Positions 14,758 through 32,370 of a DNA stretch of 64,000 nucleotides are shown here, one piece after another. The notes below the pieces were generated by a model that had not been told where the DNA came from, did not search any database, and was given only the letters and a program-made list of their open reading frames with translations. The DNA lies in assembly GCA_965226795.1 (NCBI GenBank), contig CBDDDZ010000005.1:640001-704000 (forward strand), read 5' to 3'. The DNA comes from Candidatus Latescibacterota bacterium (lineage in GTDB: Bacteria > Latescibacterota > UBA2968 > GCA-2709665). Within the stretch, counting starts at the first letter, position 1. Every line of letters begins with the position of its first letter. The position numbers and the translations under genes are program-made.

Positions 14758-14826
14758 GTCGTCCCTTTCTAACGCTTCAACCAGGACCCGTCAACCCCCG
14801 TGATCGGGCAATCTCAAATGCTTCAT

Positions 14827-15288: not shown

Positions 15289-15362
15289 CCTTTTGAATAT
15301 ACCTTGCGAATTCCCAGGTGAAAAGGGGAAAAGAACTACTGTGATTAAGGCACGTGCGGCTT

Positions 15363-15657
15363 ACATGGATGGACAGGATGAAAAGGATGGAAACCAGGAA
15401 CTGCAAGACCGGTGTCTGCTGACTAACTATGTTAAAAAAAATACACCCCACGAGCCGTCCCAGACTCACGGGGAATTCTCAAACCAACACCGACAAACAT
15501 GGGTCTACAGGATCTACTGTCAATCAGCCATAAGTCACGCGATTACGTTATTTTATGTGATTGTGCCAACCGCGTGGACAGGGTGGTTAGAGGGTTCCCG
15601 AGATTTTCGCGACTGTCGGGTTTCAGTCTTTATCCTGTCTATCCTGTGCATCCATGT
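15363..15657. repeat. Inverted pair of the 26-nt 9-periodic repeat (MITE/REPIN-like unit)
   Basis: ACATGGATGGACAGGATGAAAAGGAT (15363-15388) ... ATCCTGTCTATCCTGTGCATCCATGT (15632-15657). Confidence 0.8.
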
Positions 15658-15718
15658 AAGATGTGTCGTCGAAAGGATCACCATCGCATAACCCGAAGTC
15701 CATCCGCGTCCAGTACGA

Positions 15719-15904
15719 TCACTCGTGTAGCCGGAACTTGATCTCGGCGATCGAAGCCGTCTCCAGGAATGATTCCAATTCTTTTTTCAGGTTTTCCTGG
15801 GCTTCGAATACAGTTTTTCCCTGGCTCGCGATGTCCAACTCGGGGCATAGAGAGACGTACCCATCGCCGACGCGCTCGATAATTGCCGTCAACTGTCTGG
15901 TCAT
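15719..15904 (-). CDS. HicB-family antitoxin, short and possibly truncated; no HicA adjacent
   Basis: LTAIIER.GDGYVSLCPELDIASQG.T..EA..NL. Confidence 0.75.
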   Translation of the reverse strand: MTRQLTAIIERVGDGYVSLCPELDIASQGKTVFEAQENLKKELESFLETASIAEIKFRLHE

Positions 15905-15937
15905 CACCAACTCCCGCATTTCCGATTCAAAGAATTA

Positions 15938-16294
15938 ACATGGATGTACAGGATAATACTGTGATTACCCTGATTACACTATGATTGCCATGATTAAGTC
16001 GGATGCGCGGACAGGAAAGACGAGCGAAATCCGACTTGGCATCTGAAACACGGAAAAAAGCCTGTCAGTACCTTAATTAAGGTGAAATGTATGATTACTG
16101 ATTACCGTGATTAAGGCGCGTGGTCGCGGAAGGGCAACAGCGGAAATCCTGTGCATCATGTTAACCACAGTGTCTATCCTGAACATCCATGCCTCCCGCT
16201 TCGCCGCTTTTGCCTCGAATCACAGTCCATCATTATAATCACACGAATCATAGTCGTTTTTGGTCTTCATCCTGTCTATCCTGTGCATCCATGT
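15938..16294. mobile_element. MITE-like composite repeat, copy A
   Basis: Ends are inverted copies of the repeat. Internal CTGTGATTA tracts and other blocks match 31506-31844. Confidence 0.7.
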
Positions 16295-16295
16295 T

Positions 16296-16907
16296 TCATG
16301 CCTTTTTACGAGGATCGCCTGTCAATTGTTCCCACGCTTTCGTGAAGGACTCAGGCTCGACACCGAGCGCATCGGCCACGCGGTTGATATAGTTGAAATA
16401 GCCGACGATCTGGACCGCGTCATGAATGGCGCGATCGTCGAAGCCGTGCCGGCGCAACCCGTCTATATCCTCCGCCGTTGAAGTCTGGGGATCCAGGCTG
16501 AGTTTTTCCGCGAAGGCACAAAGTGCGCGGTCGGCCGGGGAGAGGCGGGCCCCGCGCCAATCCGTGGCCAACTGATGCACCAGACGGTCGGCCTCGTCGT
16601 CGTCCTCAACGCCGAAATCTCTGGCGACCTCGGCACGGAGGTCGTGGGCGTGGGCGCGTATTCAGTACACGCAATGATTCGCGGCCGAAACCACCACGGC
16701 CAGCATCTCCCGCCGCCCGCGGCTGAGAGGGGAGGGGCCGTGCATCAGAATGCCATAAAAATCCAGCGAAGCCTTCATGACGGGGGGGTTGGGGCTCATG
16801 ATGGACACAATGCCCCAGATACGTCCGGCGCGGGACATCGCGGCGTCGTACAGCTTCTTCAACAGGCCGGTGGCCTTATCTGGCGGGATGACATTGATAT
16901 CGGGCAT
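16296..16907 (-). CDS. AhpD/carboxymuconolactone decarboxylase-like peroxidase-related selenoprotein (CxxU; UGA at 16664-16662)
   Basis: Two ORF-track fragments share one frame joined by a single TGA in NHCVY-U-IRAH. A SECIS-like hairpin follows. GGAGG RBS. Confidence 0.85.
16625..16644 (-). promoter_or_regulatory. Putative bacterial SECIS hairpin
   Basis: mRNA CGACCUC-CGUGCC-GAGGUCG, with the loop 24 nt after the UGA and G at loop position 2. Confidence 0.7.
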
Positions 16908-16972
16908 CACGGACCTCCAACCGAACACGGATCAACAGGGATATTCTAATCATACCAAAAACAAAACGACCT

Positions 16973-16998
16973 ACATGGATGGACAGGATGAACAGGAT
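16973..16998 (+). repeat. 26-nt 9-periodic repeat at the left edge of the AT-rich cargo
   Basis: ACATGGATGGACAGGATGAACAGGAT; a degenerate copy lies at 17108-17124. Confidence 0.8.
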
Positions 16999-17443
16999 AA
17001 AACGGGAAAAACTGGAAAATCCAGTACACCCTGGACCATCACGATGCTAAAGCCGACGATCGGACGTAGTGACGGATTTCGTAGAATCTCCAGAAAAACA
17101 CCAAGATACAAGGATAGACAGGATGGTTGTCCCCGCTCCGGATAAATCCTACTTGGAGATTACGTCCCTTTATTGTTGGACGTAAATCAGCAACTTGACA
17201 TAAGTCCGAAATAATACTATACTTTTGTGCAGTAATATCCAAACCACGAGGAACACTTGCAAATCTGATGCACTGTGGCACGAAATGGCTAGCGGTGATG
17301 TATCGTAAAGAGAAAACTGGGTTTGCGAATATGCAAATTGCTAATCTGCACTGCAGGCGACGATTGGTCGGTGGCATGTTAATCTAAGTTGCAGATTGCG
17401 CCGGGAAAACCGACGTTTGACGGCAAATACGACGAGGGACACA

Positions 17444-18733
17444 ATGGCGAAAACAGTAATGATATTTGGAGCAGGAGCGTCGATCCCATTTTTCTGCCCG
17501 CCCATTTCGACCGATGGATTGACTGAATTAGTACAGAATGAGACGAAATGGCAAAAGCTCCTGGATAGGTATAACGCAGAGATGCGTCGTGCGAGTCGCC
17601 TTTTGGTTTGTAAGGTCAAATGGGATCCCATATCGCGTTTAAGTCAACGGGCACGTGAAGTGAAAGGGTGTGTAAACTTCGAGGAACTCATTGGGTTTTG
17701 CGACATGTATTCATCATTCGTTTTGGACGAAACATATCTCGCAAACCCTGGAATTGGAAGAGAATCCAAACGTCAACATGATCTCTTAAGGTTTTTCAAC
17801 GTTAGACAGCCATTTCAATGTGGTCAGTACTGGCAATTTGTACCCTTCCTCTTCAGACAGCTGATTGCTGAAGAGATTGGAGAAAGGGATCGCCAATATC
17901 GATCAAATGACTTTTGCGACCTCCTGAGCAAACAATCGAGTTTGCTCTCGGGTCAATTGAAAGATGGGGATCTGTCAGTATTCACTTTTAACTATGATGA
18001 TGTCTTGCCTCAGACCGTGGAAGTTGCAACGATACCTCTGGAAACGGGTTTCTCGTCAGGATACTTTTGTAGTGAGAAATTCCTAAAAGCACCGTCAGTT
18101 CTGGCATTTCTACACGGCCATGCAAAATGGGCTCTGGAAGATTGCGGTATCAGGGAATTTGCATCAATCTCCGACGCCAACACTTGGCGACTTAAGCGCC
18201 TTTTTTCCGCGGAGTCGGCGTCGATGGAATTCGTCGATGAATCTGGTGCCTACGACTTCAATTCATTTTTGTCCACTGGCTTAGACAAGGAGCCATCATT
18301 CAACCGAAACCCCTATTGTGCGTACCACCAGCGTATAGCCCGCGACCTTATGTCTGCAGATGCCCTTATTGTCGCTGGTTACTCGTTCAGTGACCCCCAC
18401 ATTGACAGGTTACTATTAAACTTCCGAAACCTCCGGCCGGAGAATAAGATCCTGGCAATTGACCTGTCGAAACAGGACATTGAGATAACGGAGGAATATA
18501 AGAATTGTGAAAGATTTGTTGGCCGTTTACTCCAAGTATTCGACGTCACAACAATTCCCGTAGAGTCTAGGAATCTAAGCTACAAATACGCTGGCGCATT
18601 GAACTGTACAAACAGAAATGGCTACGGCTTTTTGTATCCTCAAATCTGGATCTACAAAAATGGTTACGGGGAGTTTCTTTCAGAATGGCAGACCGTTCTC
18701 GATAAGTGGCGACGCTCTCACGATCCGTATTAG
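17444..18733 (+). CDS. SIR2-like (SIR2_2) domain protein, putative defence NADase
   Basis: IFGAGAS, FTFNYD, FLHG and IVAGYSFSDPHI motifs; AT-rich context. Confidence 0.8.
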   Translation: MAKTVMIFGAGASIPFFCPPISTDGLTELVQNETKWQKLLDRYNAEMRRASRLLVCKVKWDPISRLSQRAREVKGCVNFEELIGFCDMYSSFVLDETYLANPGIGRESKRQHDLLRFFNVRQPFQCGQYWQFVPFLFRQLIAEEIGERDRQYRSNDFCDLLSKQSSLLSGQLKDGDLSVFTFNYDDVLPQTVEVATIPLETGFSSGYFCSEKFLKAPSVLAFLHGHAKWALEDCGIREFASISDANTWRLKRLFSAESASMEFVDESGAYDFNSFLSTGLDKEPSFNRNPYCAYHQRIARDLMSADALIVAGYSFSDPHIDRLLLNFRNLRPENKILAIDLSKQDIEITEEYKNCERFVGRLLQVFDVTTIPVESRNLSYKYAGALNCTNRNGYGFLYPQIWIYKNGYGEFLSEWQTVLDKWRRSHDPY

Positions 18734-18888
18734 TACGACCTTTTCCCTGTGACGTTGTTGCCATTGCGATCTTTTTTTAGCGACAGATGTAGGCATGACA
18801 CGGTCGGAAAAAACTGCTCTCAAGCAATACGTCGTCATAGGTCATGCCGACACGGGGACAGCACAAGTCTCGCGGGTTTGAACGGCCG

Positions 18889-19131
18889 CTAGTGCCTCTT
18901 GTCTTTGGGTGGGTTCGGGTCGTTACCGGGCGGTACCGTATCCGAATCACGCCAACGACCATCCCGTCCCTGAATGCGAACCTCTCCACCACCTGAGTTT
19001 CCAACAATCTCCTTTGCCCGTTGCTCGGCTTCGTACTGTGTGTCGTGAACAGAACTGGCTCTTTCCGAGTTTGGACCCTTTACAGCCCAGCCTCTCTGAT
19101 GCTTCGTTACATACCGTTCATTCCTTCCCAT
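18889..19131 (-). CDS. DUF2188 family small protein
   Basis: GWAVK...S.RAS..H.TQ.EA...A, EVRIQGRDG.WRD.DT...GNDP.PPKD. AGGAGG RBS. Confidence 0.85.
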   Translation of the reverse strand: MGRNERYVTKHQRGWAVKGPNSERASSVHDTQYEAEQRAKEIVGNSGGGEVRIQGRDGRWRDSDTVPPGNDPNPPKDKRH

Positions 19132-19208
19132 GTTGACCTCCTTGATTTGGTTGGTTCGTGTTTACCGATAATTACCGAACGATCAAAGAGCGTTGGTTCA
19201 TTAAGATT

Positions 19209-21021
19209 GAGCCCACTCCGAAAAGTCGTGTTTACTTAACCAGGAAAAAGTACTAAATTCGAGGTGTCAACAGGTTGCAATGTTTCAGATTGATGTTTGA
19301 TCACAAAGAAGCGAGGGACATATGTTTAGAAGGAGTGCCCCTTCAAGTCAGCCGGATCTGTTTAGCAGCTTCGAGTCGCATTTCAAAGGTCCGAAGCTGG
19401 ATCGGCTAAATGATCCGGCCGCCTGGAATAATCTGTTCTACGAGCACATCACGTCAAAGGTCGATGAGGATATTTTTCGTGTGGTGTTTGACCCTGACAT
19501 AGGCCGTCCCAATGCGCCGATCCGGCATCTGGTGTCGATGATGATCTTGAAGGAGGGCTTTGGGTGGAGCGATGCCCAACTTTTTGAGCAATGTCGGTTC
19601 AACATCCTGGTGATGGGGGCATTGGGGTTGGTGAATCTTACGGATGAAGTGCCTGTCGAGTCCACGTATTATCTGTTCAAGCAGGCTTTGTATGCGTATC
19701 AACTGAAGACCGGTCGCGATCTGGTAGGAGAGACCTTTTTCAGCTTAACAAAGACGCAGGCCAAGGCCTTTGGTGTATTGGGTCAACAAATCCGAATGGA
19801 CAGTAAGTTGATCGGCGCCAACATTGCCTTGTGTTGTCGGTTGCAGTTGGTGGTTTGTTGCTTACAAGGGTTCTGGAGGTCATTGGACAAGGATGAGAAG
19901 GGACGATTATCGGCAACGGATCAGCAGGTTTTGGAGGATCTGATCCAAGGGAAGCCCCATCAGGTTGTCTACCGTCTCACCCCTACTGAAAAAGGCGAGA
20001 AGCTACAGGAATTGGGGCGGTTATTGAGCAGGCTACAAGAGACCTATACCGAGAAAGACAGCGATCGATATGGTCTGATCGTGCGTGTTTTTGAGGACCA
20101 ATATACGGTTTTGTCTTCCCCCGAAGAGGTGCTACCCAAGCCGCCGAAAGCGATCTGTTCATCCTCGTTGCAGTCTGCCCATGATGACGATGCGGCCTTT
20201 CGCAGGAAAGGCGAGAATAAGGTGAAAGGGTATAATGTCAACCTCACCGAGACCTGCGATGAGGATGGCCTCAATTTGATCACGGATGTTGACGTCAAAC
20301 CGGCGACGAGTCCCGACAACGCGTTTGTCCAACCTGCCATTGAGCAGACACAACGCGTGGTGGGTGACGTCTTGGAAGTGTCAATGGATGGGGCCTATAA
20401 TGATCAATCCAACGCCGAGTACGCAAAAGAACAGGACAAGCAATTCTATTACAGTGGCCTGCAAGGAACCCCAGGGCGTTTCAGTTATGAACGCGCAGCA
20501 GACGGTGTCAAGGTCATTGATCAACAAACCGGAGAGGTTCAGCTTGCCCAAGAATACAAACCGGGAAAATACAAAATCATCATCGATGGCAAACCACGAT
20601 ACTTTAAAGAACAACACATCGACAGTTACCTCAATCGCAAACAGATCGAAGCACTCCCTGCCCATATTAGAAACAGACGCAACAATGTCGAGGCCAGCAT
20701 CTTCCAGTTGAGCTATTACACCCAAAATGGCAAGACGCGCTATCGCGGACTGATGCCACACCAACGGTGGGCCTGGTGTCGTGGCCTATGGATCAATCTG
20801 GTTCGGATCAAGAACTACCTCGCTACACCCCTGATGATCCCCGCATAATCGGGGATTTCTTGTGCAAAACCCTGATTGACAACACCCAGACCAACCTGGT
20901 GGCCTCCCTCTACGTTGATGCGCCGCAGGTCGCTGTAAAATCCCGGCACCACGATACATCCCTATACGCATCGCTGTCCACCAACACGAATCCTTCGCGG
21001 CCCCCTTTTCGGAGGCGACTC
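19209..21021 (+). mobile_element. Insertion sequence (IS5/IS1182-like), 1813 bp
   Basis: Imperfect TIRs GAGCCCACTCCGAAAAG / CTTTTCGGAGGCGACTC. Flanking direct repeat AAGATT at 19203-19208 and 21022-21027. Confidence 0.88.
19322..20848 (+). CDS. DDE transposase (DUF772-type N-terminus)
   Basis: GRP...L..M..LK..FGWSD, RMDS, MDGAY and RNNVEA motifs; lies inside the TIRs. Confidence 0.88.
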   Translation: MFRRSAPSSQPDLFSSFESHFKGPKLDRLNDPAAWNNLFYEHITSKVDEDIFRVVFDPDIGRPNAPIRHLVSMMILKEGFGWSDAQLFEQCRFNILVMGALGLVNLTDEVPVESTYYLFKQALYAYQLKTGRDLVGETFFSLTKTQAKAFGVLGQQIRMDSKLIGANIALCCRLQLVVCCLQGFWRSLDKDEKGRLSATDQQVLEDLIQGKPHQVVYRLTPTEKGEKLQELGRLLSRLQETYTEKDSDRYGLIVRVFEDQYTVLSSPEEVLPKPPKAICSSSLQSAHDDDAAFRRKGENKVKGYNVNLTETCDEDGLNLITDVDVKPATSPDNAFVQPAIEQTQRVVGDVLEVSMDGAYNDQSNAEYAKEQDKQFYYSGLQGTPGRFSYERAADGVKVIDQQTGEVQLAQEYKPGKYKIIIDGKPRYFKEQHIDSYLNRKQIEALPAHIRNRRNNVEASIFQLSYYTQNGKTRYRGLMPHQRWAWCRGLWINLVRIKNYLATPLMIPA

Positions 21022-21307
21022 AAGATTGTATCCAGGATACTCTCGGTGACGCCGCCGTGGAACCCCCGTAGAGAAAGCGATCGGGCGGTGACGAAATACG
21101 ACGCCATCGATTAAATGATGCGGTCAGATGTTCCCTTCTCATCAACTTCCCTATTTGTTACTTGCGATGTTGCATCTTTAGCCTTGGTTCAGGCTATCAA
21201 GGAAGGCCATGCATCTTGGAAGTCAGCGGACATTGGCACATAATTCCCCAAGTCGTCTATTCGGAAAGGAATTCCAGACGCAGAGGTTGGGATTTGCTAC
21301 CGGTACG

Positions 21308-21862
21308 TCATCTCTTTTTACCTAATTCTTCCAATGACATCTCATCGATCTCCTTCGAAATCAGTACCTGTATTCTGAATTTCCTTTTGTACCGCAGGAA
21401 CTTGGCATTCGGTATCTGCGCTGTATTACCCATACAAACAATGTATTTGTCCTGTATATTCTGGATTTTTTCGTTCGCCACATCAATTGAATGCTGATCG
21501 ATACACTTATCAAGAAAATCAGCTTCTCTAATCAAACCTCCCCATATTGCTACCGCCGACTCGTGACGAGCCACCTTCTCCGTCCATTTGAAAACGGTGC
21601 TGTCCAACGCCTGAACAATCGCTGTTAAAAGAGGTAACAGAAAAATGAGTGACAGAATCATATCGCCTGTCCATACACGTCGAAAATGGAATCCGATTAA
21701 CGCAGTGGAAACTAAGGATAACAATACAACGGAGAATTCTTTGCTACTACGAAAATTGTTATATCGTTCCTTTAGCTCTGCGTGACAGAATCGGCACAAT
21801 TCTGCTTTCTTTCTCAGTTTCTTGAGAACATCCCGACTTAAATTCACGCTGTTATTTGACAT
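21308..21862 (-). CDS. SLATT-like two-transmembrane protein, putative CBASS effector
   Basis: Basic N-terminal helix, two hydrophobic segments, helical tail. Overlaps the end of the AAA gene; last gene of the operon. Confidence 0.7.
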   Translation of the reverse strand: MSNNSVNLSRDVLKKLRKKAELCRFCHAELKERYNNFRSSKEFSVVLLSLVSTALIGFHFRRVWTGDMILSLIFLLPLLTAIVQALDSTVFKWTEKVARHESAVAIWGGLIREADFLDKCIDQHSIDVANEKIQNIQDKYIVCMGNTAQIPNAKFLRYKRKFRIQVLISKEIDEMSLEELGKKR

Positions 21863-22757
21863 TTTCGTCGATCCGCGGGCTTGGTTTCACGATTGACACA
21901 GTTTCCTTAAGTAATTTGAAAGTCAATGCACGGTCCGGAAAGGCCTGGGAAAGAGCTTCTGGATAAAATCGTAACCGAAAATCGGAGTATGAATATCCAC
22001 TTTCTCCATACAATCCCCTAGTCGAGGTGAGAGACGCTAATTCGCATAGCTCTTTAGGTGCCAGTTCTATTCCTTGAAGATCCTTCTTCAGCAGTTCTAA
22101 ACTCTCGTCTCTAGTCGGTCGAGAAAACTCCATGTGTAATGCAGCACGTCTAACAACCGCTTGATCGATAACATCTGCTCTATTGGTACACAGAAATACA
22201 ACGGCTCGACCGCCCACTTGGCGAATCTCATCGATTTTTTGTATCAAAGTGTTAACGGCAGCCTTTTCTTCCTGGTGCATTTGTTCTGTGGACCGAAGCG
22301 ATGCAATCGAATCTGCCTCGTCTATCAGCAAAAAGGACAGACGCTTCTTGCCCGCTTGAGTTTTCAGATTTTCGAAGGCCTCCTGGATGAGTTGGCTCAT
22401 CTCTCCATGAAGACCCTTACCTCTCACCCGGGTGCTAAGTTTGAGCAGAAAACCTTCTTTGTGCATCTCTCTCGTCAACCGGTCAGCGGTACACTCGGCC
22501 GTAACAGTTTTTCCGGTCCCAACATCGCCACTGAAAAGAAAAAGCGGATATCTTTGTCGAATAACGTTACATAAGGGAATAATTCGTCCGTAGTACTTCT
22601 TGCTCCATTCATCTATTTGATCGGGCATTAACATTGTGATGAGCTGATTTTTCAGTGTTTCATAACGTCTCTCGAATCCAACAAGTGTTTCAGCGATATC
22701 TTTCAAATCATTTGATGGTAGGTCTCGTACTGTGTCAAACGTATTTTGTGTCATCAT
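21852..22757 (-). CDS. cap6: CBASS TRIP13/Pch2-like AAA+ ATPase (Cap6)
   Basis: Walker A GDVGTGKT, RVRG.GLHGEMS, Walker B IDEAD, CTNR, D.AV.RRA; adjacent to HORMA. Confidence 0.88.
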   Translation of the reverse strand: MMTQNTFDTVRDLPSNDLKDIAETLVGFERRYETLKNQLITMLMPDQIDEWSKKYYGRIIPLCNVIRQRYPLFLFSGDVGTGKTVTAECTADRLTREMHKEGFLLKLSTRVRGKGLHGEMSQLIQEAFENLKTQAGKKRLSFLLIDEADSIASLRSTEQMHQEEKAAVNTLIQKIDEIRQVGGRAVVFLCTNRADVIDQAVVRRAALHMEFSRPTRDESLELLKKDLQGIELAPKELCELASLTSTRGLYGESGYSYSDFRLRFYPEALSQAFPDRALTFKLLKETVSIVKPSPRIDENVK

Positions 22758-22767
22758 CTCGCCCCGT

Positions 22768-23250
22768 TTAGTTCACAAATGTATCCCTGCGTAATCCGTA
22801 GGTACTGCTGGAATAGAGTCTGCCGTCGTCGTTTTGCATTTCCGAGTAATCGGTCGACAAGGATGACGGACTCCAACCTAGTTTTAACTTGCCTGAACTC
22901 TTGAGCTCTTCCGCCGTTTGACGATCAGAGTATTCAACTATCACGCATAGGCTGCCGTCCGGTAAGCATGGCCACCGATTGTCTCCCGGCCTTTCGGATT
23001 CCGACACAATGTCTTCTTTCACGGAATATCGATGAACCTTAGTGAGATTTTCCGTAGCGTCATACAATTGTAGGTGGACGCGCGTCAAACACTGTTCTTG
23101 TGCCATTAAACAGACATCATAAGCACACTTCTCTGCATGATCTAATTCCATTGCTTGTGTCCTTACAGCAAGCATTCGCAGGTCTGCCTGAAAGTTTTCG
23201 AAAACTTTACGGATATCTGTTCTGGTATATGTTCGCGTAATGGTGTTCAT
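22768..23250 (-). CDS. Bacterial HORMA-domain protein (Cap7-like)
   Basis: T.TYT.TDI.KVF..F.ADL N-terminus and YSS..YGL.R C-terminus; lies between the CD-NTase and the AAA+. Confidence 0.82.
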   Translation of the reverse strand: MNTITRTYTRTDIRKVFENFQADLRMLAVRTQAMELDHAEKCAYDVCLMAQEQCLTRVHLQLYDATENLTKVHRYSVKEDIVSESERPGDNRWPCLPDGSLCVIVEYSDRQTAEELKSSGKLKLGWSPSSLSTDYSEMQNDDGRLYSSSTYGLRRDTFVN

Positions 23251-23255
23251 TAGTA

Positions 23256-24206
23256 TTACTCCTCCTTAATATTGAAACTTGGTCCGAAAACTTCCTTCCA
23301 CAACTCCAATGTTTTTCCAGTCTCTTGCACCGCTTGTGCATAGGAAATCGTCTCAAAGCTTTGTTCGGTCATGTCAACAATCTCGTTCCACTCCCTATCA
23401 GACATCCTGATTGTATTGTTTTCGTTGTTGGTTGGATCCGCTATCCACGGGGCATTGCCGTCTCGTGGCCCAATAGCGCCCGAGAAATACACTTTAGCGG
23501 GATTACCGTTACCGAAGAACTCGAAGAAATTGATAATCGCCTGATTTATCGAAGATCCAGATACTACTCGCCCTTCCGCAACCAAATTGGCCACGGCCAA
23601 TTCAATGGAAAAGGAGGAAAGTTCCAATTCTTGGTAGTTTCTCCAGCTTTTTATTATACGGACGATAGAAGTGAAATTGGGACACTTGCCCTTTATTTTT
23701 CTGGCAAAATCCAGTTGCTTGTCAACGCTCGTCTTAAACTCACCTGAATTGAGTTTCTTTCGAGGTTGCCTTCCGTAAGTCGTATTTCCTTTTTCGGGTA
23801 TAAATGGCACTATATCTACCTCAAGGCCAGTGCCTCTGAACACAACACCGATGGTTTTTTGGCCGTCGGTAAAATCGGATCTTTGTTTGTTCGGGTACGC
23901 TCTACATAGGACGTCAATTATACCCTCTCTAAGATCCTCGGCGTTGAACAAAGTATCTTCTTCTACGTTCAGGTAAAAAACCATGTCGATATCGAGTGGA
24001 TAGTCTCCTCGTGGTGCCAAGGCAGTGCCTTTCTTCCACGAGCCCGTCCTTAGCACCTTCGTTACCTTAGTGTTCTCCATTTCTTTTACTGCTTCGAGAA
24101 CGTTATCTTTCAAATTGTCGATTTGGTTGCCGTAAGTGGACTTTTTCTCTTGGGTGAGCTTTATCCGGTTTACGTAATTGTTCAGTTGCTTGTTTGTATA
24201 TTCCAC
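23256..24206 (-). CDS. cGAS/DncV-like nucleotidyltransferase (CD-NTase, CdnC-like)
   Basis: GSWKKGTAL...DID, EVDIVP, VRIIKSWR, SF.IEL and DPTN..N motifs. GTG start with AGGAGG. Confidence 0.9.
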   Translation of the reverse strand: MEYTNKQLNNYVNRIKLTQEKKSTYGNQIDNLKDNVLEAVKEMENTKVTKVLRTGSWKKGTALAPRGDYPLDIDMVFYLNVEEDTLFNAEDLREGIIDVLCRAYPNKQRSDFTDGQKTIGVVFRGTGLEVDIVPFIPEKGNTTYGRQPRKKLNSGEFKTSVDKQLDFARKIKGKCPNFTSIVRIIKSWRNYQELELSSFSIELAVANLVAEGRVVSGSSINQAIINFFEFFGNGNPAKVYFSGAIGPRDGNAPWIADPTNNENNTIRMSDREWNEIVDMTEQSFETISYAQAVQETGKTLELWKEVFGPSFNIKEE

Positions 24207-24526
24207 GTACCACCTCCTGTTGTATTCTAAAAAGCCCTAAAAGAAAAAAAGCTCGATTGCGACTCTGGATGTTGTCGTAACTCGTTGTTCTAAATTATGT
24301 TACGGTGGTGAATTGATGGGAGCACGGAACCATTAATTTCACTTCTGATTTTCGTAGTTTCCCGGTTGGAAACAAACACATCTTGAGTCACAACTGCAGG
24401 ACAATCTAACGGAAAAACCACCTTATATCAAGGAAAAAAAAGCAATTTTGCTTTGTATTAAAAATCAATAGCTGCGGTTTTGTGTCGCGTTTGAACGATA
24501 TATTGCACAAATTCGCTTTTTATTGA

Positions 24527-24556
24527 TTGACATCTGGGATTCAATATACCTATATT
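24527..24556 (+). promoter_or_regulatory. Sigma70-type promoter for the HTH/peptidase pair (probably leaderless)
   Basis: TTGACA (24527-24532), 18-bp spacer, TATATT (24551-24556), ATG at 24564, no RBS. Confidence 0.55.
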
Positions 24557-24563
24557 CTTACGT

Positions 24564-24944
24564 ATGCGACGCCGACCTGAATCAGAGCGACTCTACGAGA
24601 TTGTGGGGCAGAAGGTGGAACGTAGGCGGCGTGAGGCGAAGCTCACGCAAGCCCAGTTGGCGCGGCTATGTGGCCTCGCACGAGGTTCCATTGCCAACAT
24701 AGAAAGTGGCAACCAGCGTCCAACAATTCATACGCTTTGGGACCTCGCAGATGCGCTTGAGGTCGATATGCGCTCACTTCTGCCTTCACCTGAAGAATTT
24801 CTGACGGATGTGGTGAGTACCGAGAGATCGGTTATCACAGGTCGGTTAGAGAAGGCGGCGGGGGGGAGCCGAAACCAGGTAGCTATCTTTATCGCTAACA
24901 GCCGAGCGGAGGTCATGCCAGATGTCTCTAGAGAGGCTGGCTGA
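24564..24944 (+). CDS. XRE-family HTH repressor (CapH-like)
   Basis: LTQAQLA...GLARGSIANIESG.QRP; divergent from the CD-NTase. Confidence 0.88.
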   Translation: MRRRPESERLYEIVGQKVERRRREAKLTQAQLARLCGLARGSIANIESGNQRPTIHTLWDLADALEVDMRSLLPSPEEFLTDVVSTERSVITGRLEKAAGGSRNQVAIFIANSRAEVMPDVSREAG

Positions 24945-25425
24945 GGGGCTACTCGCAAATGCAGGCGTCAAATCCGCACCGATTCGGTTGGATCGCGTCG
25001 CCAAACATCTGGGCGTAAGGATCCAGAATGCCGACCTCGGTGAAGATTGTTCGGGGGTGCTCGTTCGCAATGGGAACCGTGCTGTTATTGGCGTCAATGA
25101 GGATCACCATTCGAATCGGCAGCGGTTTAGCATCGCGCACGAAATCGCCCATTTCGTTCTTCACAGCGGGGATACGTACATCGACAAAGGGTATCGTGTG
25201 CAATTCCGCGACCTTGAATCAGGCTCTGGGACGAAACGGGAAGAGATGGAGGCTAATGCGTTTGCTGCGGCATTGCTAATGCCTGCCGCCTGGCTGAGGG
25301 ATGCCTTCCTGCGGCAGCCCTTTGATTTGACCGAAGACGATGACTTGGAGATGCTTGCTGAGAAGTTCGAAGTGAGTACTCAAGCAATGACCTACCGACT
25401 AATGAAACTGCGAATGATCGGCTGA
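24922..25425 (+). CDS. ImmA/IrrE family metallopeptidase (CapP-like)
   Basis: RQRFSIAHEIAH (HExxH) and EMEANAFAAALLMP. Confidence 0.92.
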   Translation: MSLERLAEGLLANAGVKSAPIRLDRVAKHLGVRIQNADLGEDCSGVLVRNGNRAVIGVNEDHHSNRQRFSIAHEIAHFVLHSGDTYIDKGYRVQFRDLESGSGTKREEMEANAFAAALLMPAAWLRDAFLRQPFDLTEDDDLEMLAEKFEVSTQAMTYRLMKLRMIG

Positions 25426-25577
25426 AAACCCGCTTTCTCCCGCACTCTAATTCTTTTTTGTCACCCACGCACCAATTCACCGCCTGACTCTTCCCCGCAA
25501 ACCCTTCTACTGACAGCCATTTTTCCGATACCATTCAGGCATGTTGTTTGACTGGGATCTGGCATCTTCGGTTTTCT

Positions 25578-25603
25578 GTCCTGCTTATTCTGTTTATCCA
25601 TGT
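25578..25603 (-). repeat. Degenerate 26-nt repeat at the right edge of the AT-rich cargo; contains the hsdM-S stop codon
   Basis: GTCCTGCTTATTCTGTTTATCCATGT. Confidence 0.65.
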
Positions 25604-28155
25604 TTCCCTTCTCCCCAAACCCTCCCAATGGCCGCCTGAATCCTTTTGTCAAATCGCTGGATCAACGCCCGGTTTGAATCCACGATCGATTGTTCGAGTT
25701 CTATCGCTCTCACGACGGCTTCTTGTGATTGTAGTGGTGGTAGCGGAATTTTGAATTCTGCCAGTGACTTCAAATTTATCCCGGCTTGGCCAATCCACTT
25801 ATTCGCGCGCGCAACGAAAGCACCGTTGCGCCACGCTGAGTGAAGACTAATCGCCAAGAACCCGGCATCACAGCGCTCCCTTGCAGTTCTAATACGGGTC
25901 ATGTGATTAGAATACCCGCCTTGAATTCCTTTCGAAATTACGCACGTCTTACCGACCAGTTCTTTGCTATTCGTATTGTTAAATAGAATGTCGTCAGCCT
26001 TGAGTGAGTAGTGCTCCTTACCTTGATATTTATCCGCGGGCAGGTACTTCATTCCTTCCCAAACAAACTGACCATCCTTTCCTATGTTCATTGGGCGGAC
26101 GTGCGGAACGCCTTCCGAGTCGGTGCTCGTTTTTCCACAGGCAAAGCCAGCTCTGAGCTCTCGTGAGATCTCACCAATCGTCACCATCGGCCAATCGGGG
26201 TCGATGGGAATATGGGGCCGGTAGTTGTCGATCACCGCGCGCGCTCCGTCGATCACCCGCTGGTACCCCTCTATCTCCGCCACAATTTCCCGCTGCACCT
26301 CCAACGGCGGCACAGGGATTTGAATTTGCGCGACCGCGGATGGGTTTGCGCGAGAAAGCGAACCACCAACACCGGTTATTGTCTGCATAAACCGAACGTG
26401 GAAGGTGTCGGAAACGAGTACACGCTGTAGGAATTGGGGTATGATCTCATTGCTGGAGAAAACCAACCATTCCGTGGAGGCAATTTGACGCCTATTGTAG
26501 GGGTCTTCTTTGACAACCCAAGCACGGCGAATGTGTGGAATAATTCGTGACAACAAGACATCTTTAGGATATACGGACTTTTTTGCCGAGCCGATATCAC
26601 GACCTGGAAGTATTTCTGGTCTTCCAGCATCAAAAGCGGGGATACTCCACAACTCGAATATTTCGTCCGGTGTGTTTCGAGGGTCAATGCTCTTAACCTT
26701 TGGTCTCAGAAAACGGCCTACGGGCACGAGATCGTAGACTGTGTTTAAAGTCTCACTCTCCCTGTACCGCTCCCCGCTTAGGTTATACTCCCCACCTGCC
26801 GCGATTTTGGTTTTTTCTACTATGAGGGCCGCGCCTTGCCGAACGAGTTCCGCCAACATTGACGATCTGGGGGCGGGGGCCGCTTTGTCTTTATCCTGTT
26901 TATCCTGTCCATCCATGTTCCCAACGTTGTCCATGTATTCCTTGACGGCATGCTCTGTTCCGGGCAGGTCGTTCTTGTCTATAGGTCTGCGCTGGGCGCC
27001 GAGGTCGAAGCCGTCGTTTTCGACCTTGAAGAATGCGATGCGGTCGGTTCTTTTCGCCAGGGCTCTGTCGAGGATCAGGATGGATGTTTTGACACCCGAG
27101 TAGGGGTTGAACACGCCCGCGGGGAGGGAGACGACCGCGACGAGGTACTCCTCGATCAGCATTTTGCGCAGCTGTTTGTGGGCGTTCTGGCTTTGAAAGA
27201 TGATGCCCTCGGGTACAATAATTCCGGCGCGGCCGGCTGGCGTGAGATGCTCGGCCATGTAGTCCACGAACAACACTTCGCTGCGTTTGGATTTCATGGA
27301 AAAGCGGTTGTGCGGGCGGATGCCGCCCTTCGGCGACATGAACGGCGGATTGGCAAGAATGACGTCGGCGTACTCGTTCCAGCGGTCGTCGCTGGTCAGG
27401 GTATCGTATTCGATGATGTGCGGCTCCGGGAATCCGTGCAGGTACATGTTTACCAGCGACAGGCGGACCATATCCGGCGAGATGTCATAGCCCTGCAAGT
27501 TGGCCGTGAGTCTTTCTCGTTCGTCGGGTGTAAGCGTACTGTTTCCCTCGTCATCGGTATTGGCGGCGATTATATGCTTGTACGACGAAATTAGAAACCC
27601 GGCGGTGCCGCAGGCTGGGTCGAGGACGGTTTCGCTCTTCTTCGGGTCAAGGACCGCAACGATGAAGTCGATGATATGGCGTGGGGTCCGGAACTGCCCG
27701 GCGTCGCCCTGTGATCCGAGGACCGAGAGCAGGTATTCGAAGGCGTCGCCGAGCCGCTCGCTGTGGTCGTAGGTGAACTCGTCGATAATCTTAAGGAAAG
27801 CTCGGAGCGTCTCCGGGTCGCGATAGGGGAGATAGGCGTTGTTGAAGATGTCCCGGAAGAGTACCGGGATACCCGGGTTCTCCGGCATCCTGCCAATGGC
27901 CTCGGCATAGAGATTCAGCATCTCGTGCCCGCCCAGGCCTGAACGCATCAGCTTCGGCCAGCCAAAGCGGGCGAACTCACCGGCAAAGAATTTCCGCGTG
28001 CCACCGAGTTCCTCACTTTCCGCGTCCATGTCGTCCATGAACTTGTAAATCAACGCGATGGTAATCTGTTCGACCTGGCTCTTGGGGTCGGGCACCTTAC
28101 CGACCAGAATATCGCGGGCCGTATCTAACCGCCGTTTTGTCTCGCTATCGAGCAT
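25594..28155 (-). CDS. hsdM: Type I R-M N6-adenine methyltransferase fused to a two-TRD specificity subunit (HsdM-HsdS)
   Basis: GQFRTPRH, DPACGTAGFL and NPPF motifs, followed by two TRDs each ending IP(V/L)PPL..Q. Start taken at MLDSETK. Confidence 0.9.
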   Translation of the reverse strand: MLDSETKRRLDTARDILVGKVPDPKSQVEQITIALIYKFMDDMDAESEELGGTRKFFAGEFARFGWPKLMRSGLGGHEMLNLYAEAIGRMPENPGIPVLFRDIFNNAYLPYRDPETLRAFLKIIDEFTYDHSERLGDAFEYLLSVLGSQGDAGQFRTPRHIIDFIVAVLDPKKSETVLDPACGTAGFLISSYKHIIAANTDDEGNSTLTPDERERLTANLQGYDISPDMVRLSLVNMYLHGFPEPHIIEYDTLTSDDRWNEYADVILANPPFMSPKGGIRPHNRFSMKSKRSEVLFVDYMAEHLTPAGRAGIIVPEGIIFQSQNAHKQLRKMLIEEYLVAVVSLPAGVFNPYSGVKTSILILDRALAKRTDRIAFFKVENDGFDLGAQRRPIDKNDLPGTEHAVKEYMDNVGNMDGQDKQDKDKAAPAPRSSMLAELVRQGAALIVEKTKIAAGGEYNLSGERYRESETLNTVYDLVPVGRFLRPKVKSIDPRNTPDEIFELWSIPAFDAGRPEILPGRDIGSAKKSVYPKDVLLSRIIPHIRRAWVVKEDPYNRRQIASTEWLVFSSNEIIPQFLQRVLVSDTFHVRFMQTITGVGGSLSRANPSAVAQIQIPVPPLEVQREIVAEIEGYQRVIDGARAVIDNYRPHIPIDPDWPMVTIGEISRELRAGFACGKTSTDSEGVPHVRPMNIGKDGQFVWEGMKYLPADKYQGKEHYSLKADDILFNNTNSKELVGKTCVISKGIQGGYSNHMTRIRTARERCDAGFLAISLHSAWRNGAFVARANKWIGQAGINLKSLAEFKIPLPPLQSQEAVVRAIELEQSIVDSNRALIQRFDKRIQAAIGRVWGEGKHG
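26893..26918 (-). repeat. 26-nt repeat inside the hsdM-S coding sequence
   Basis: ATCCTGTTTATCCTGTCCATCCATGT, translated in frame as MDGQDKQD. Confidence 0.8.
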
Positions 28156-28170
28156 AAGAAACCCCAACTT

Positions 28171-28352
28171 ACATGGATGTACAGGATGCACAGGATAAAG
28201 ATCGATAGTTCACAAACTACCCATTATCGGGGATCTGACGAACCGGGGGCTTTTGCCTCTCTCGAACAGTGAAATACACAGTCGCCTTTTCGGGATACAT
28301 TGCCCGAACCGACTGGTTTTGGCCTTATCCTGCCTATCCTGTGTATCCATGT
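28171..28352. repeat. Inverted pair of the 26-nt repeat
   Basis: ACATGGATGTACAGGATGCACAGGAT (28171-28196) ... ATCCTGCCTATCCTGTGTATCCATGT (28327-28352). Confidence 0.8.
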
Positions 28353-28764
28353 TTAGTCTTGTTTTTTCGGTGTTCGCGTAAACCGCTTAAACTCCAATTT
28401 GGGCTTCCCGAAGTTGATCAGTAGCCCGACCTCGAATCCGGTTGCGTTCAGGTAGTTGATGATCTGGGCTTTCATGTTCGCGCGTAAGCGCCTTGACTGC
28501 TTTGAGTTCGACGATGACTTTGTCTTCGACCAGGATATCCGCGATAAAATCCCCGACGGGTCTGCCGCGAAAACGCACGGCGATCGGTTTTTGCATCTCG
28601 TGTGAAACACCCGCATCCGATAGCGCAACGGTCAGGGCCTTCTCATAGACCGATTCCAGGAACCCGCTTCCAAGTTCATTGATCACCTCCAACGCACAAC
28701 CGATAATCTTGCGGGTCAAACCGCCGTGCAATAGCCCGTGATCCTGTTTATCCTGTGCATCCAT
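28353..28764 (-). pseudogene. GxxExxY protein (PD-(D/E)XK nuclease-like), frameshifted at about 28470
   Basis: LGSGFLESVYEKAL and ADILVEDKVIVELK in one frame; AQIINYL.ATG..VGLLINFG in the next. Confidence 0.9.
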
Positions 28765-28936
28765 GTTGTCCTACCTTGCGAACTGGTACAGGAGTAACGA
28801 CGCAATCCTGTGGTTATTTCGTTGTTTTTGTTGGCTATAGACCCAGTAACTGGATGATTCCTTTTGTGTTTTTGTGCCTTTTGTGGCCATTTTGTTTCAA
28901 GAAGTCCCTGATCCTGTCTATCCTGTGCATCCATGT
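28741..28936 (-). repeat. Two direct copies of the 26-nt repeat (28741-28766, 28911-28936) plus a GCCACAAAAGGCACAAAAACACAAAA tract
   Basis: Read directly. The 28741-28766 copy provides the first in-frame ATG of the GxxExxY gene. Confidence 0.8.
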
Positions 28937-28940
28937 AGGC

Positions 28941-31469
28941 TTACGCAGCAAACTGGTTCAAAGGTACGTAGTCTTTCACGTATTCAGGGACGAGTTCACG
29001 GTATTTCTCGGGCACGGCGCGCAGGTCCTGCATTGAGAGCACCGGGTTTGTGGCCAGGCCGGTGTAGTCCCGATTTTCGATGATGTGGCGGATTTGGTCG
29101 CTGGTCACGTACGCCTTGAAGTAGTTCTTGATCGCGGGGATGGCCTCGACCTCTTCCGGTGTGTAGTCGGCCACGAACTTCGCGAATTCCTCCTCCAGCA
29201 TTTCGTCTCTGGATTTGAATCGCGGTATCAGCCCGAATACCTTTTCCAGAATCTCGCGCAAGGTGATGCGGCGGTCCACGGCCGCTGCCCGGCGGAGCTT
29301 TTCCAGGGTATAGTACTCTTCGGGCCGGTCGAAAACCTCATGGTTGACGTAGTCGATGACCCGGTCCCACTGACCGGCCTCGACGGCCGCGGCGATGACT
29401 TCGTCCTTACGCACGGTATCCTCGAATTTCTCGAAGAACATGCGGTCGATCTTCATCCCTTCCGAACCGACGGCCTCGACCTTGATCGTGGACAGGATGT
29501 CCCTGCCCAGGTACTCGTAAGAGCCCGCGTCGGATCCGGGCGATTCCGAGCCCTCTCTTTCGTGGGCATCCCTGTAGACAGGGAGTTCCAACACTTCGTC
29601 GTAGTTGAACTCGGTTTCGAAGTATTCGCAATTGGCGAAGAAATCGAACAGTTTGAACGCCGTCTTATCGGGCTGGTCCACGTCCTCCGCCAGGTTCGGA
29701 TCGTGCAACTGGTCGAGGAAGCTGTGTTTTCGCGTACCGCGTCCCTTGATCTGGATGAAGTCGGTAGGGGAGAAGATGGGGCGGAACAGCACCAGATTCA
29801 GGATATCCGTGCAATCGTACCCGGTTGTCATCATGCCGACCGTCACGCAAACCCGCGCTTTACTCGTCCGATAGGAGGGGAGGAAGTTGCTCCAGCCGAG
29901 CAGGTTATTGTTTGAATAATTGATGGTTAACCGTTGGGCATCCGAAATCTGCGACGTGACCTGCACGGCAAAGTCCGACTGATAACGGCCGGGAAACATG
30001 ACGTCGGCCATCAAGTTGAGGATCTGCGCCAGCCTTGACGCGTGGTTCTGGCTGACGGCAAAGACGATGGACTTGCCGACTTCGCCGCTCACGGGATCCC
30101 GCAGCGCGTTCTCCAGGAAAGTCTTGCAGAAAATCTGGTTGGTCGCGTCGGAAAAGAAGCGCTTTTCGAACTCGCGCTGTTTGTAGGCTTCTTCCTGTTC
30201 TTCTCCCTCATCGTCCGTAAAAGATACGACGAATCCCTGCTCCGAGAGCAACTCGGTCGTCACCTTTGTGCGTGCATCCACGACCGTCGGGTTGATCAGA
30301 TAGCCGTCCTTCACGCCGTCGAGCAGGGAGTACTTGAATGTGGGCTGCCCGCTCTCGCACCCGAAGGTGCGGTAGGTGTCCAGGAGCAACCGGCGTTCGG
30401 CTTCGCGCGGGTCCCGCGTGGCAGGACGCGTTTCGTTGAATCCCTTGAGATAGTCGCGGGGGGTTGCAGTCAGGCCCAGCTTGTACCCCACGAAATAGTC
30501 GAATACGGACCTGGCATTGCCGCCTATCGATCGGTGCGCTTCGTCTGAAATGACGAGGTCGAAGTCGGTGGGGGAGAAGAGGGACTGATACTTGTTGTTG
30601 AAAAGCAGCGACTGGACCGTGGTGACGACGATTTCCGCCGAGCGCCAGTCGTCGCGCCGCTCTTTGTACACCACCGTCTGGAAGTCCGCCGAAAGCAGGG
30701 CGGAGAAGACCTTGCGAGCCTGCTCTTCGAGTTCCAGCCGGTCCACGAGGAACAGAACGCGGGAGGCGTTTCCGGAGCGAAGAAATAACTTGATTACGGC
30801 GGCGGCCACCAGGGTCTTTCCCGTACCCGTGGCCATTTCGAACAGAAACCTGTCTCTGCCGTCTCTCACCGCCCGCTGCAGAGCATGAACGGCCCGGAGT
30901 TGGTAGGGGCGGAGTAAACTCAGTTTATTGGATTTGATGAAGCCGGGGCGCTCGGCTTCGTTTTTCCAGGCGGCTTCCGAAGCATAATTCGGCCGCTGGG
31001 TGAGCACAATGTAGTCCTCGCGGACCCGCTCATCGACCAGGCGCTGCGGGTTGGGCTGGACTTTGTTATAGTCGGTTACGGACTCCGGCGTGGGGAAGGA
31101 TGTGACAAGGTATGGATTACCACGGTCGAGGTCCCAGAAGTAGTGCAGATTTCCGTTGGAGAGGATAACGAAACGGCAGTTCTGCGAGCGGGCGTACTTA
31201 CGCGCCTGTTCCTTTCCCACAAGAGGATTCTTGTCCTCGGACTTGGCCTCCAGAACGACGAGCGGGAAGCCCTTCTCGTTCAGGAGGAGAAAGTCGATAC
31301 GACCCGTCGCGTTCTCGAAGTCGTCGCCCAATGCGTCCAGGTCCTCGCGCTTCAGGACGACCTTCTGTTCGACGCGAATGTTGCCGGGCTTGCCACCTTC
31401 GTCAAAGAAGCGCCACCCTGCCGCCTCGAGCATTTTGTTGATCTTTATTCTCGCCGCTGCTTCATTCAT
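28941..31469 (-). CDS. hsdR: Type I restriction endonuclease subunit R (EcoAI/EcoEI-like)
   Basis: IDFLL...LEAK nuclease motif, MATGTGKT, DEAHRS, LTATP, MMTTGYD, QIKGRGTR. Confidence 0.92.
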   Translation of the reverse strand: MNEAAARIKINKMLEAAGWRFFDEGGKPGNIRVEQKVVLKREDLDALGDDFENATGRIDFLLLNEKGFPLVVLEAKSEDKNPLVGKEQARKYARSQNCRFVILSNGNLHYFWDLDRGNPYLVTSFPTPESVTDYNKVQPNPQRLVDERVREDYIVLTQRPNYASEAAWKNEAERPGFIKSNKLSLLRPYQLRAVHALQRAVRDGRDRFLFEMATGTGKTLVAAAVIKLFLRSGNASRVLFLVDRLELEEQARKVFSALLSADFQTVVYKERRDDWRSAEIVVTTVQSLLFNNKYQSLFSPTDFDLVISDEAHRSIGGNARSVFDYFVGYKLGLTATPRDYLKGFNETRPATRDPREAERRLLLDTYRTFGCESGQPTFKYSLLDGVKDGYLINPTVVDARTKVTTELLSEQGFVVSFTDDEGEEQEEAYKQREFEKRFFSDATNQIFCKTFLENALRDPVSGEVGKSIVFAVSQNHASRLAQILNLMADVMFPGRYQSDFAVQVTSQISDAQRLTINYSNNNLLGWSNFLPSYRTSKARVCVTVGMMTTGYDCTDILNLVLFRPIFSPTDFIQIKGRGTRKHSFLDQLHDPNLAEDVDQPDKTAFKLFDFFANCEYFETEFNYDEVLELPVYRDAHEREGSESPGSDAGSYEYLGRDILSTIKVEAVGSEGMKIDRMFFEKFEDTVRKDEVIAAAVEAGQWDRVIDYVNHEVFDRPEEYYTLEKLRRAAAVDRRITLREILEKVFGLIPRFKSRDEMLEEEFAKFVADYTPEEVEAIPAIKNYFKAYVTSDQIRHIIENRDYTGLATNPVLSMQDLRAVPEKYRELVPEYVKDYVPLNQFAA

Positions 31470-31505
31470 GGATAAGGCTTCTCTGATGTCGTTTAACAAC
31501 ATTTA

Positions 31506-31844
31506 ACATGGATGGACAGGATGAACAGGATAGACTGTGATTACCGTGATTAGACTATGATTACTGTGATTAAGGCAGATGCGCGGGCAGGAAGACGAGC
31601 GAAATCCGATTCACCACGTGACCCACTGTTAAATGCCTGCGATTAGTTCGATTAAAGTGCAGGAATGGACTGGGTGGGTAGGGTGGGATTTCGGTTCGCG
31701 CGATTGTCAGGTTTTGGTCTTCATCCTAATATCCATAGTTTCCCGCTTCTCCGCCGCTTTTGCCTTTAATCACAGCCCATCATTATAATCACACGAATCA
31801 CAGTCGTTTCTTGCCTTTATCCTGTCTATCCTGTTTATCCATGT
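31506..31844. mobile_element. MITE-like composite repeat, copy B
   Basis: Inverted 26-nt ends (31506-31531, 31819-31844); internal blocks shared with 15938-16294. Confidence 0.7.
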
Positions 31845-31872
31845 TCCCCAGTTTGCGCCCTCTATGGTATTT

Positions 31873-32370
31873 CTACCAGCCCCCCACCTGCGTCCGGTCC
31901 ACAATATCCCGTGTCAGGATCTCGAACGCCGCGCCGAGGCCCTCCAGGCGAACCTCTTCCCGCTGGCCGGCTGCGTTGTAGATGCCGTATCCTTTCAGGC
32001 GCTTCTCCTCCCACAGCAACTTCTTGTTTTTCGCATCGTAGCAACTGACATCCAGAAAAACCGATATCTGGAACTGATCCTCCTGGCCGCGGTAGGTGAA
32101 GGGGTCGTCCCGCACCTCCACAATCGTGCCGCGAAGCACGATATCCGCACGGTCCTCGTCCATCACGCGCAGCGCCGCATCCTGCAGGAACGCCTGGATC
32201 AGGCTGTCCGTGAGCGCCTGCTGGATTTCCGGCTCCAGGCTTTCGTTCTCCATCAGCGGAATGGCCACCGAACGAAAACCCGCCCCGCCGGTGGCCGATG
32301 TCGAATAGTACGCGCATCCGCCCAGCCAGAGCAGCAACAGTGCCGTGACAGGAAGAAGAGAACGGTTCAA
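31873..32370 (-). CDS. LptE-family lipoprotein
   Basis: Lipobox LGGC after a signal peptide; VAIP..EN.S, AD.VL.G.I pattern. Confidence 0.78.
   Translation of the reverse strand: MNRSLLPVTALLLLWLGGCAYYSTSATGGAGFRSVAIPLMENESLEPEIQQALTDSLIQAFLQDAALRVMDEDRADIVLRGTIVEVRDDPFTYRGQEDQFQISVFLDVSCYDAKNKKLLWEEKRLKGYGIYNAAGQREEVRLEGLGAAFEILTRDIVDRTQVGGW

Follow-up and report, generated by a model that had tools for sequence, protein, structure and literature searches.

Periodic repeat arms paired with clades of a predicted GxxExxY nuclease at a bacterial defence hotspot

Ssn nucleases are encoded by small single-domain genes flanked by cognate, protein-dependent NTS/SRM repeats, which also occur genome-wide in clusters around variable genes, according to the accessible portions of Chenal et al. 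2025 (PMC11893778). A second group, comprising repetitive extragenic palindromic (REP) sequences, REPINs and BIMEs with their RAYT enzymes, REPtrons and TIRtrons, shows doublets in inverted orientation, tandem clusters that take in neighbouring DNA, enzyme genes specific to the repeats yet sometimes absent from genomes that bear them, and repeats targeted by other mobile elements, as far as the available sections of three papers describe them (PMC3116915, PMC3733652, PMC1525189); REPtron repeats likewise persist without a cognate gene (PMC3733652, in part). Here we describe a system with similar features in a 64,000-nucleotide stretch of a Candidatus Latescibacterota genome (hereafter the window; positions 640,001–704,000 of contig CBDDDZ010000005.1, assembly GCA_965226795.1). 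It consists of a 26-base repeat, which we call the arm, and a gene for a GxxExxY-family protein, both lying in a defence hotspot between a NUDIX gene and lptE. Genomes are denoted by G numbers, with G000 the window's own.

The GxxExxY–arm system works like an NTS/Ssn or REP/RAYT pair but belongs to neither class. In the part of the source available, Ssn is a GIY-YIG enzyme and each NTS is itself a hairpin (PMC11893778), whereas GxxExxY is assigned to PD-(D/E)XK by family and fold hits, its nuclease role here is predicted, and its arm, a triple word with a 9-base period, does not fold by itself. It differs from REP/RAYT in having no HUH/Y1 transposase at the repeat and no palindromic single unit, and in a gene that occurs patchily and is swapped between clades instead of being inherited stably. 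Like the core defence hotspots (cDHS) of Pseudomonas aeruginosa, the site holds defence genes in very different amounts between flanking genes that are conserved; the cDHS paper proposes seeding of target sites and exchange by homologous recombination, but its accessible text does not report seeding with a nuclease-linked repeat, as found at the present site (PMC10250203). One intron subfamily inserts here at a fixed base, the 3′ end of the inverted arm, which recalls group IIC and IIC-attC introns; in the available part of their description the target is a terminator or attC (PMC7923331), whereas here it is the GxxExxY arm, and the intron is assigned to group II only. The GxxExxY family (PF13366) is listed as of unknown function in the section of PMC3424549 that was available, and the partly accessible literature elsewhere names it merely as a domain near a reverse transcriptase (RT). 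A literature search that covered few subscription journals and no supplements found no description of these repeats.

The reading towards which we lean, with confidence only a little above even, is that the 26-mer is the arm of a mobile cassette and of its gene-less derivatives, and that the nuclease likely recognises and nicks its own arm type, with host repair copying the arms. A broader proposal, which we regard as possible but doubtful, is that GxxExxY cassettes form a third, undescribed selfish class of nuclease plus cognate repeat beside RAYT/REP and Ssn/NTS. In such a class, a minimal PD-(D/E)XK enzyme would read a 9-periodic arm, compete with other clades for operon junctions, ride type I restriction–modification (R-M) operons between phyla, and seed recombination and intron targets that grow a defence hotspot. 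The family is widespread, and its clade-by-clade protein–repeat code offers a directly testable substrate and could, as with Ssn, be a source of many small nucleases with sequence or structure specificity. Empty, filled and deleted alleles show a 0.1-kb gap between two housekeeping genes growing into a 3–28-kb defence hotspot, and the locus separates the steps of this growth that repeats explain from those they do not.

Periodic arms and the GxxExxY gene

The arm is built from three fixed 7-base words and two variable 2-base spacers, giving a 9-base period. Its consensus matches the window 12 times at up to 3 mismatches, always within 15363–31844 (0 matches in 100 shuffled windows), with partial copies at 15938, 16146/16167 and 17109; the rest of the 64 kb yields only noise at 6 or more mismatches. 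An initial annotation of the window had thus placed its full copies exactly and rightly saw none outside the hotspot. Across the 5.41-Mb genome the arm occurs 22 times at up to 2 mismatches and 24 times at up to 4; the 16.5-kb hotspot holds 12 of the 24 copies (binomial p about 2e-24), and 12 others lie elsewhere. Four inverted pairs, at 15363–15657 (295 bp), 15938–16294 (357 bp), 28171–28352 (182 bp) and 31506–31844 (339 bp), agree with the span of about 180–360 bp first estimated. Arms lie 1, 0 and 4 nt from stop codons (at 16296, 28353 and 28941, respectively), again as annotated, and read in the sense direction after stop codons and inverted ahead of starts. The copies had been described as lying between genes, but the one at 26893 is in frame in the linker of a fused HsdM–S protein and that at 25578–25603 supplies the hsdMS stop codon.

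A lone arm folds at 0 kcal/mol, and paired arms form long stems interrupted at regular intervals by internal loops (z −5.0 to −9.1). Two further periodic arm families, CTGTGATTA-type and CACAAAAGG-type, occur in the region, and CTGTGATT-type arms number 25 genome-wide, 6 of them in the hotspot. At locus L036 in G015, the interval from hsdR to GxxExxY contains an expansion of the 9-base unit to about 16 tandem copies. Short CCTGCC-type palindromes lie inside arms at L064 (the HsdM–S linker of G001, where the insert keeps the reading frame), at L187 and near 529900 of G000:C2.

Each GxxExxY clade carries its own periodic arm. We gathered 128 GxxExxY loci, of which 125 pass the hidden Markov model and 124 enter a core-region tree (one duplicate dropped). 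The 23 loci that bear the window's arm all sit on a single branch of 28 rows (bootstrap 99, with the bootstrap not fully settled; SH-aLRT 97) that spans nine named phyla in addition to the window's order, and none of the other 96 rows has this arm. One locus scan was queried with an arm-encoded peptide (best 80 of 112 hits), so the window's arm is over-sampled; such a bias would favour, not hide, this arm in other clades. For all 11 arm labels, which are hand-made patterns written after the flanks had been viewed, the tree needs 28 changes as against 79.6 after shuffling (0 of 200 shuffles as low). The arm's ATG is in frame in 15 of the 23 loci and an inverted arm lies downstream in 20. The phylogeny and the flanking 9-periodic motif therefore co-vary across phyla, an outcome for which the initial annotation had proposed a test, and the common form is a small nuclease-family gene flanked by a clade-specific repeat.

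Gene and arms travel together, independently of the operon that hosts them, and cassettes replace one another at the junction between hsdR and hsdMS. This emerges from 23 orthologous hsdMS loci in 20 of the 53 genomes of the order. Upstream of hsdM, G000, G008 and G015 carry a window-type cassette; G013, G034, G039, G102 and G154 a CACAAAAGG-type; G030 and G090 a CACGAAG-type; and G016, where hsdR was not seen, a CTGTGATT-type. Gene-less hairpins occupy the position in G001, G012, G024 and G026, and only 36–40 bases are found in G025, G029 and G031, near-empty alleles of the kind the initial annotation had suggested seeking; the upstream DNA of G022 and G089 was not resolved. Within a genus, hsdM alleles are 85–94% identical, and cassettes of different types are 32–51% identical as protein. 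All 11 GxxExxY genes at the junction point the same way as hsdMS. Of the loci of the window's clade in other phyla, 6 of 20 lie between hsdR and hsdMS, as against 0 of 56 loci of other clades.

The window's GxxExxY gene (28353–28764, minus strand) draws its ATG at 28764 from the arm at 28741–28766. The annotation of a gene flanked by direct copies, one giving the start codon, holds in this respect, but the gene is frameshifted near 28470: Pfam hits fall in two frames, with one extra base relative to the intact G008 allele. Contigs from read runs X3, X6 and X7 lack the extra base at 28470, so the break looks strain-specific; no X1 contig has that deletion, at a depth of 11.7. Against TIGR04256 (cut-off 35), the window frame scores 95 bits and the G008 allele 142; PF13366 is also matched. 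Among 95 aligned proteins, D69 and E79 are invariant and K81 is at least 90% conserved. The best matches of a G008-allele model (pLDDT 89.7) are Cas4 SSO0001 and lambda exonuclease (E about 1e-4), and its best comparison with restriction-fold proteins reaches Z 8.5 (root-mean-square deviation 3.5, 99 aligned); no solved structure related by sequence was found. The model and the conserved D...ExK agree with the PD-(D/E)XK fold ascribed to the family in the annotation, and fit a predicted nuclease rather than a recombinase.

Elsewhere in G000, locus L001 (G000:C1:5368-5706) has an intact GxxExxY gene of another clade between CTGTGATT-type arms, and locus L004 has a GxxExxY remnant with CAGGATTT-type arms. 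In viral contigs we found no relative of the gene and five stretches of the arm, on three contigs; one of these, L282, has an arm doublet beside HigA/HigB-like genes (labels from open reading frame (ORF) reading). At other loci, 37 genes viewed near arms are mixed: metabolic, TPR, toxin–antitoxin and DUF5131.

Growth of the hotspot, defence cargo and introns

The arm is present in all 14 genus relatives, with 14–104 copies per genome. We compared the NUDIX–lptE site in 13 of them (G005 was omitted as incomplete, and G007 is in two pieces) and in two other genera. The span is about 3–28 kb within the genus and about 0.1 kb, free of arms, in G015 and G016 of the outgroup genera, which supply the empty alleles that the initial annotation had proposed looking for. 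As in a core defence hotspot, fixed flanking genes enclose variable defence content. A vapC–phd pair found in 13 of 13 relatives is missing from the window, where agreement with G008 runs along the HicB-side flank as far as the arm at 15632–15657 and along the NUDIX-side flank from there on; this switch of template places the crossover of the vapC–phd loss in the arm, and the deletion is bounded by one direct arm pair. The proposed tie between arms and variable content is thus borne out for one module deletion.

Tandem units in G008, G010 and G013 comprise an arm plus 30–45 bases of the upstream gene end. In the hotspots, A19 is changed to G in 49 of 71 left arms compared with 11 of 70 right arms (counts that are not independent). 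At loci of other phyla, A-to-G changes of all kinds number 11 in 36 and 9 in 24 arms, with no left/right difference. Confinement of this difference to the hotspot suggests local copying, and the sequences fit multiplication of hotspot arms by that route.

Large defence systems mostly neither begin nor end at arms. At 13 loci, with junction classes drawn after the maps had been seen, arms occur at 64 of 69 junctions among recurrent hotspot genes, at 14 of 26 between recurrent (core) genes and cargo, and at only 6 of 54 between cargo genes. The initial annotation had the repeats organise the whole hotspot, which fails because 17125–25577, an 8.4-kb block with the SIR2, insertion sequence (IS), CBASS and capH/capP genes, has no arm. 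CBASS and capH blocks that the window shares with G001 and G012 end 1–4 kb from the nearest arm. The annotation's further suggestion that the arms could be landing pads for defence genes is not supported for the large systems, given the cargo–cargo count, these block ends and, for HsdS, a similarity that in 8 of 10 allele pairs continues for 134–136 nt beyond the linker arm. Arms as the crossover for HsdS specificity swaps were rejected on the same continuation of similarity beyond the arm.

Read runs X3 and X6, two samples of one study, yield a 7,893-base contig from a near-identical strain that matches 24563–27018 with 12 differences; its agreement with the window stops one base ahead of where capH starts, and the nearest arm is 1 kb away. 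On contigs of equal depth, differences cluster in the 5′ half of ahpD, with only 4 in the 1,805 bases of 14600–16404. From this depth we infer that the ahpD-side and capH-side contigs are one, which points to a cargo exchange with ahpD and capH as its anchors. Read depth is absent over the SIR2 and CBASS genes in X3 and X6, which was not counted as evidence, and arm-to-arm joints in read contigs, mostly likely misplacements of arms, were not used. The capH/capP genes (24564–25425) are constant, and the divergent neighbouring operon varies: CBASS in G000 and G001, multiubiquitin–ThiF genes in G012.

For one intron lineage only, the arm is a true landing site. The element, with a group II RT/maturase and a fixed insertion site, begins exactly at the 3′ end of an inverted arm in 7 of 7 copies of an identical subfamily in G008, in 4 of 4 inspected in G001 and 2 of 3 in G010, and in 0 of 2 in G013 and 0 of 4 in G000. 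A sister subfamily inserts after ATTCA (G000:C5:752246, C4:451045 and C2:364397; L200, L205), and the sequences suggest retargeting within one intron family.

Nuclease-driven spread and its alternatives

In the mechanism we favour, a cassette would consist of an arm, a GxxExxY nuclease gene and an inverted arm, with arm–loop–arm as its gene-less derivative. The nuclease would recognise and nick its own arm type, and host repair would copy the arms into new intergenic sites; we propose nicking and repair because the predicted fold fits a nuclease and not a recombinase. Arms would have colonised the short NUDIX–lptE gap and then been duplicated locally together with flanking DNA, the type I R-M operon, often carrying the window's GxxExxY clade, likely serving as vehicle. 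Large defence cargo would probably enter the loops through homologous recombination between conserved genes and through IS elements, not by crossover at arms. The nuclease likely spreads the arms, as the initial annotation had conjectured, and the arms likely seed small deletions and intron insertions.

Several observations weigh against this account. The gene in the window itself is disrupted. With the G008 allele as query (at least 75% identity), no cognate gene turned up in 12 of the 15 arm-bearing genus genomes, among them the most arm-rich, G012 (104 copies); of 20 dispersed G012 copies inspected, 5 are embedded in a ~310-bp repeated shell possibly moved by other means. Mere co-inheritance of gene and arms also yields co-variation; the arm labels were written after the fact, three small arm classes are unclustered and 7 of 124 rows are unlabelled. 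In the emptiest junction allele, G031, the first arm unit is fused to the hsdM ribosome-binding region, and the junction looks, from its sequence, more like the scar of a deletion than an untouched target. Clean target-site duplications were unreadable from empty/filled pairs, the relatives being 80–90% identical. The few armed cargo–cargo junctions and the arm-free SIR2/CBASS block count against a strong, landing-pad form.

Among 151 genomes of the phylum, 22 have the arm and 4 a gene at least 75% identical to the G008 allele, all 4 with the arm; 98 near-perfect arms are spread along the G012 chromosome. Given the gene-less genus genomes and the G012 shell, arms can persist without the cognate gene and perhaps also spread without it. 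The shell, seen at G012 loci L265, L266, L274, L276 and L278, has one arm inside and palindromic TGAATAATTCA-like ends, with short remnants in G000.

The arms might instead be passive or act as RNA, giving start and stop codons and structuring mRNA at gene borders, with spread by host recombination or other elements and a nuclease that acts otherwise. Their position against stops and the codons they provide, the shared orientation of all 11 junction cassettes with hsdMS, the G–U pairs that the common left-arm variant would form on the sense strand, and the abundance of arms without the cognate gene, some inside the G012 shell, all suit this explanation. It leaves a distinct arm per protein clade across phyla unexplained, however, the strand asymmetry is missing at loci of other phyla, and an Rfam scan of 14500–32500 found no family match; we consider it unlikely.

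Somewhat more improbable is that the arms are the ends of a miniature inverted-repeat transposable element, whose movement depends on a transposase of a known kind (DDE, IS110 or RAYT) with its gene elsewhere, GxxExxY being cargo. In keeping with such an element are the inverted ends around variable interiors, the two related window copies of ~340 bp, the repeated shell of G012 and three Y1 transposase hits in G000, but none of the Y1 hits has an arm within 1.5 kb. The hotspot IS has 13-bp terminal inverted repeats (TIRs) unrelated to the arm and lies 2.2 kb from any arm (IS libraries were not searched), and of the transposase genes mapped in the hotspots of the 13 relatives, none is flanked by arms on both sides, whereas one GxxExxY clade is the sole gene consistently framed by the window's arm. 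RAYT or the hotspot IS as the cognate enzyme found no support, given the Y1 hits without a nearby arm and the differing TIRs. At G000:C5:2123657-2124001, a partial arm precedes a short remnant that we take to resemble a RAYT N-terminus.

Very improbable is a strong form of the initial reading, integron-like sites at which GxxExxY would recombine defence systems in and out: the armed core and core–cargo junctions, the empty, arm-free site in two outgroup genera and R-M operons with an arm at both ends in G000 and G013 would agree, but arms occur on both strands, most cargo junctions lack them, the shared blocks, the near-identical strain's contig and the HsdS alleles all diverge away from them, the predicted fold is that of a nuclease, and a scan of 38 ORFs in the window and 101 in the hotspots of relatives found no integrase.

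Layout of the window

From left to right, the hotspot carries NUDIX, a small HicB-like remnant, AhpD-like, SIR2-like and DUF2188 genes, an IS1182-like element with its own 13-bp TIRs, type III CBASS (cyclase, HORMA, TRIP13 and 2TM parts), capH/capP, fused HsdM–S, GxxExxY, HsdR and lptE. On the right, an arm with 3 mismatches (25578–25603, minus strand) provides the stop codon of the fused type I HsdM–S gene (25594–28156, minus), whose in-frame linker arm (26893–26918, minus) is present in 5 of 5 genus alleles, one of them interrupted, and in 0 of 18 other alleles of the order. A doublet at 28171–28352 (z = −5.0) separates hsdM from GxxExxY. Two direct arms follow at 28741–28936 (minus), enclosing a remnant CACAAAAGG-type arm (about 28860–28900) and a degenerate copy of the hsdR 3′ end; type I HsdR occupies 28941–31469 (minus). 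Between hsdR and lptE lies a nested ~340-bp element (31506–31844, z = −9.1), 96% identical to its G008 copy.

On the left, the doublet adjoining NUDIX (15363–15657) ends in the left-reading arm of the vapC–phd loss. The small truncated HicB/UPF0150-like ORF (15722–15904, minus; a weak label, Pfam E 0.04) is present one to three times per hotspot in relatives. The first nested ~350-bp element (15938–16294), with outer 26-mer arms and inner CTGTGATT arms, is 71% identical to that at 31506–31844. A full and a degenerate arm upstream of ahpD (16973–17124, plus) form the left border of the defence cargo, whose arm-free genes, from SIR2-like to capH/capP, extend over 17396–25425. The AhpD-like peroxidase gene (16296–16907, minus) is a fixed anchor of the hotspot in all relatives. 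All 16 copies from the genus share its in-frame TGA (16662–16664), placed within a CxxU-like motif, and the gene likely encodes a selenoprotein; the downstream hairpin is weak (z −1.5).

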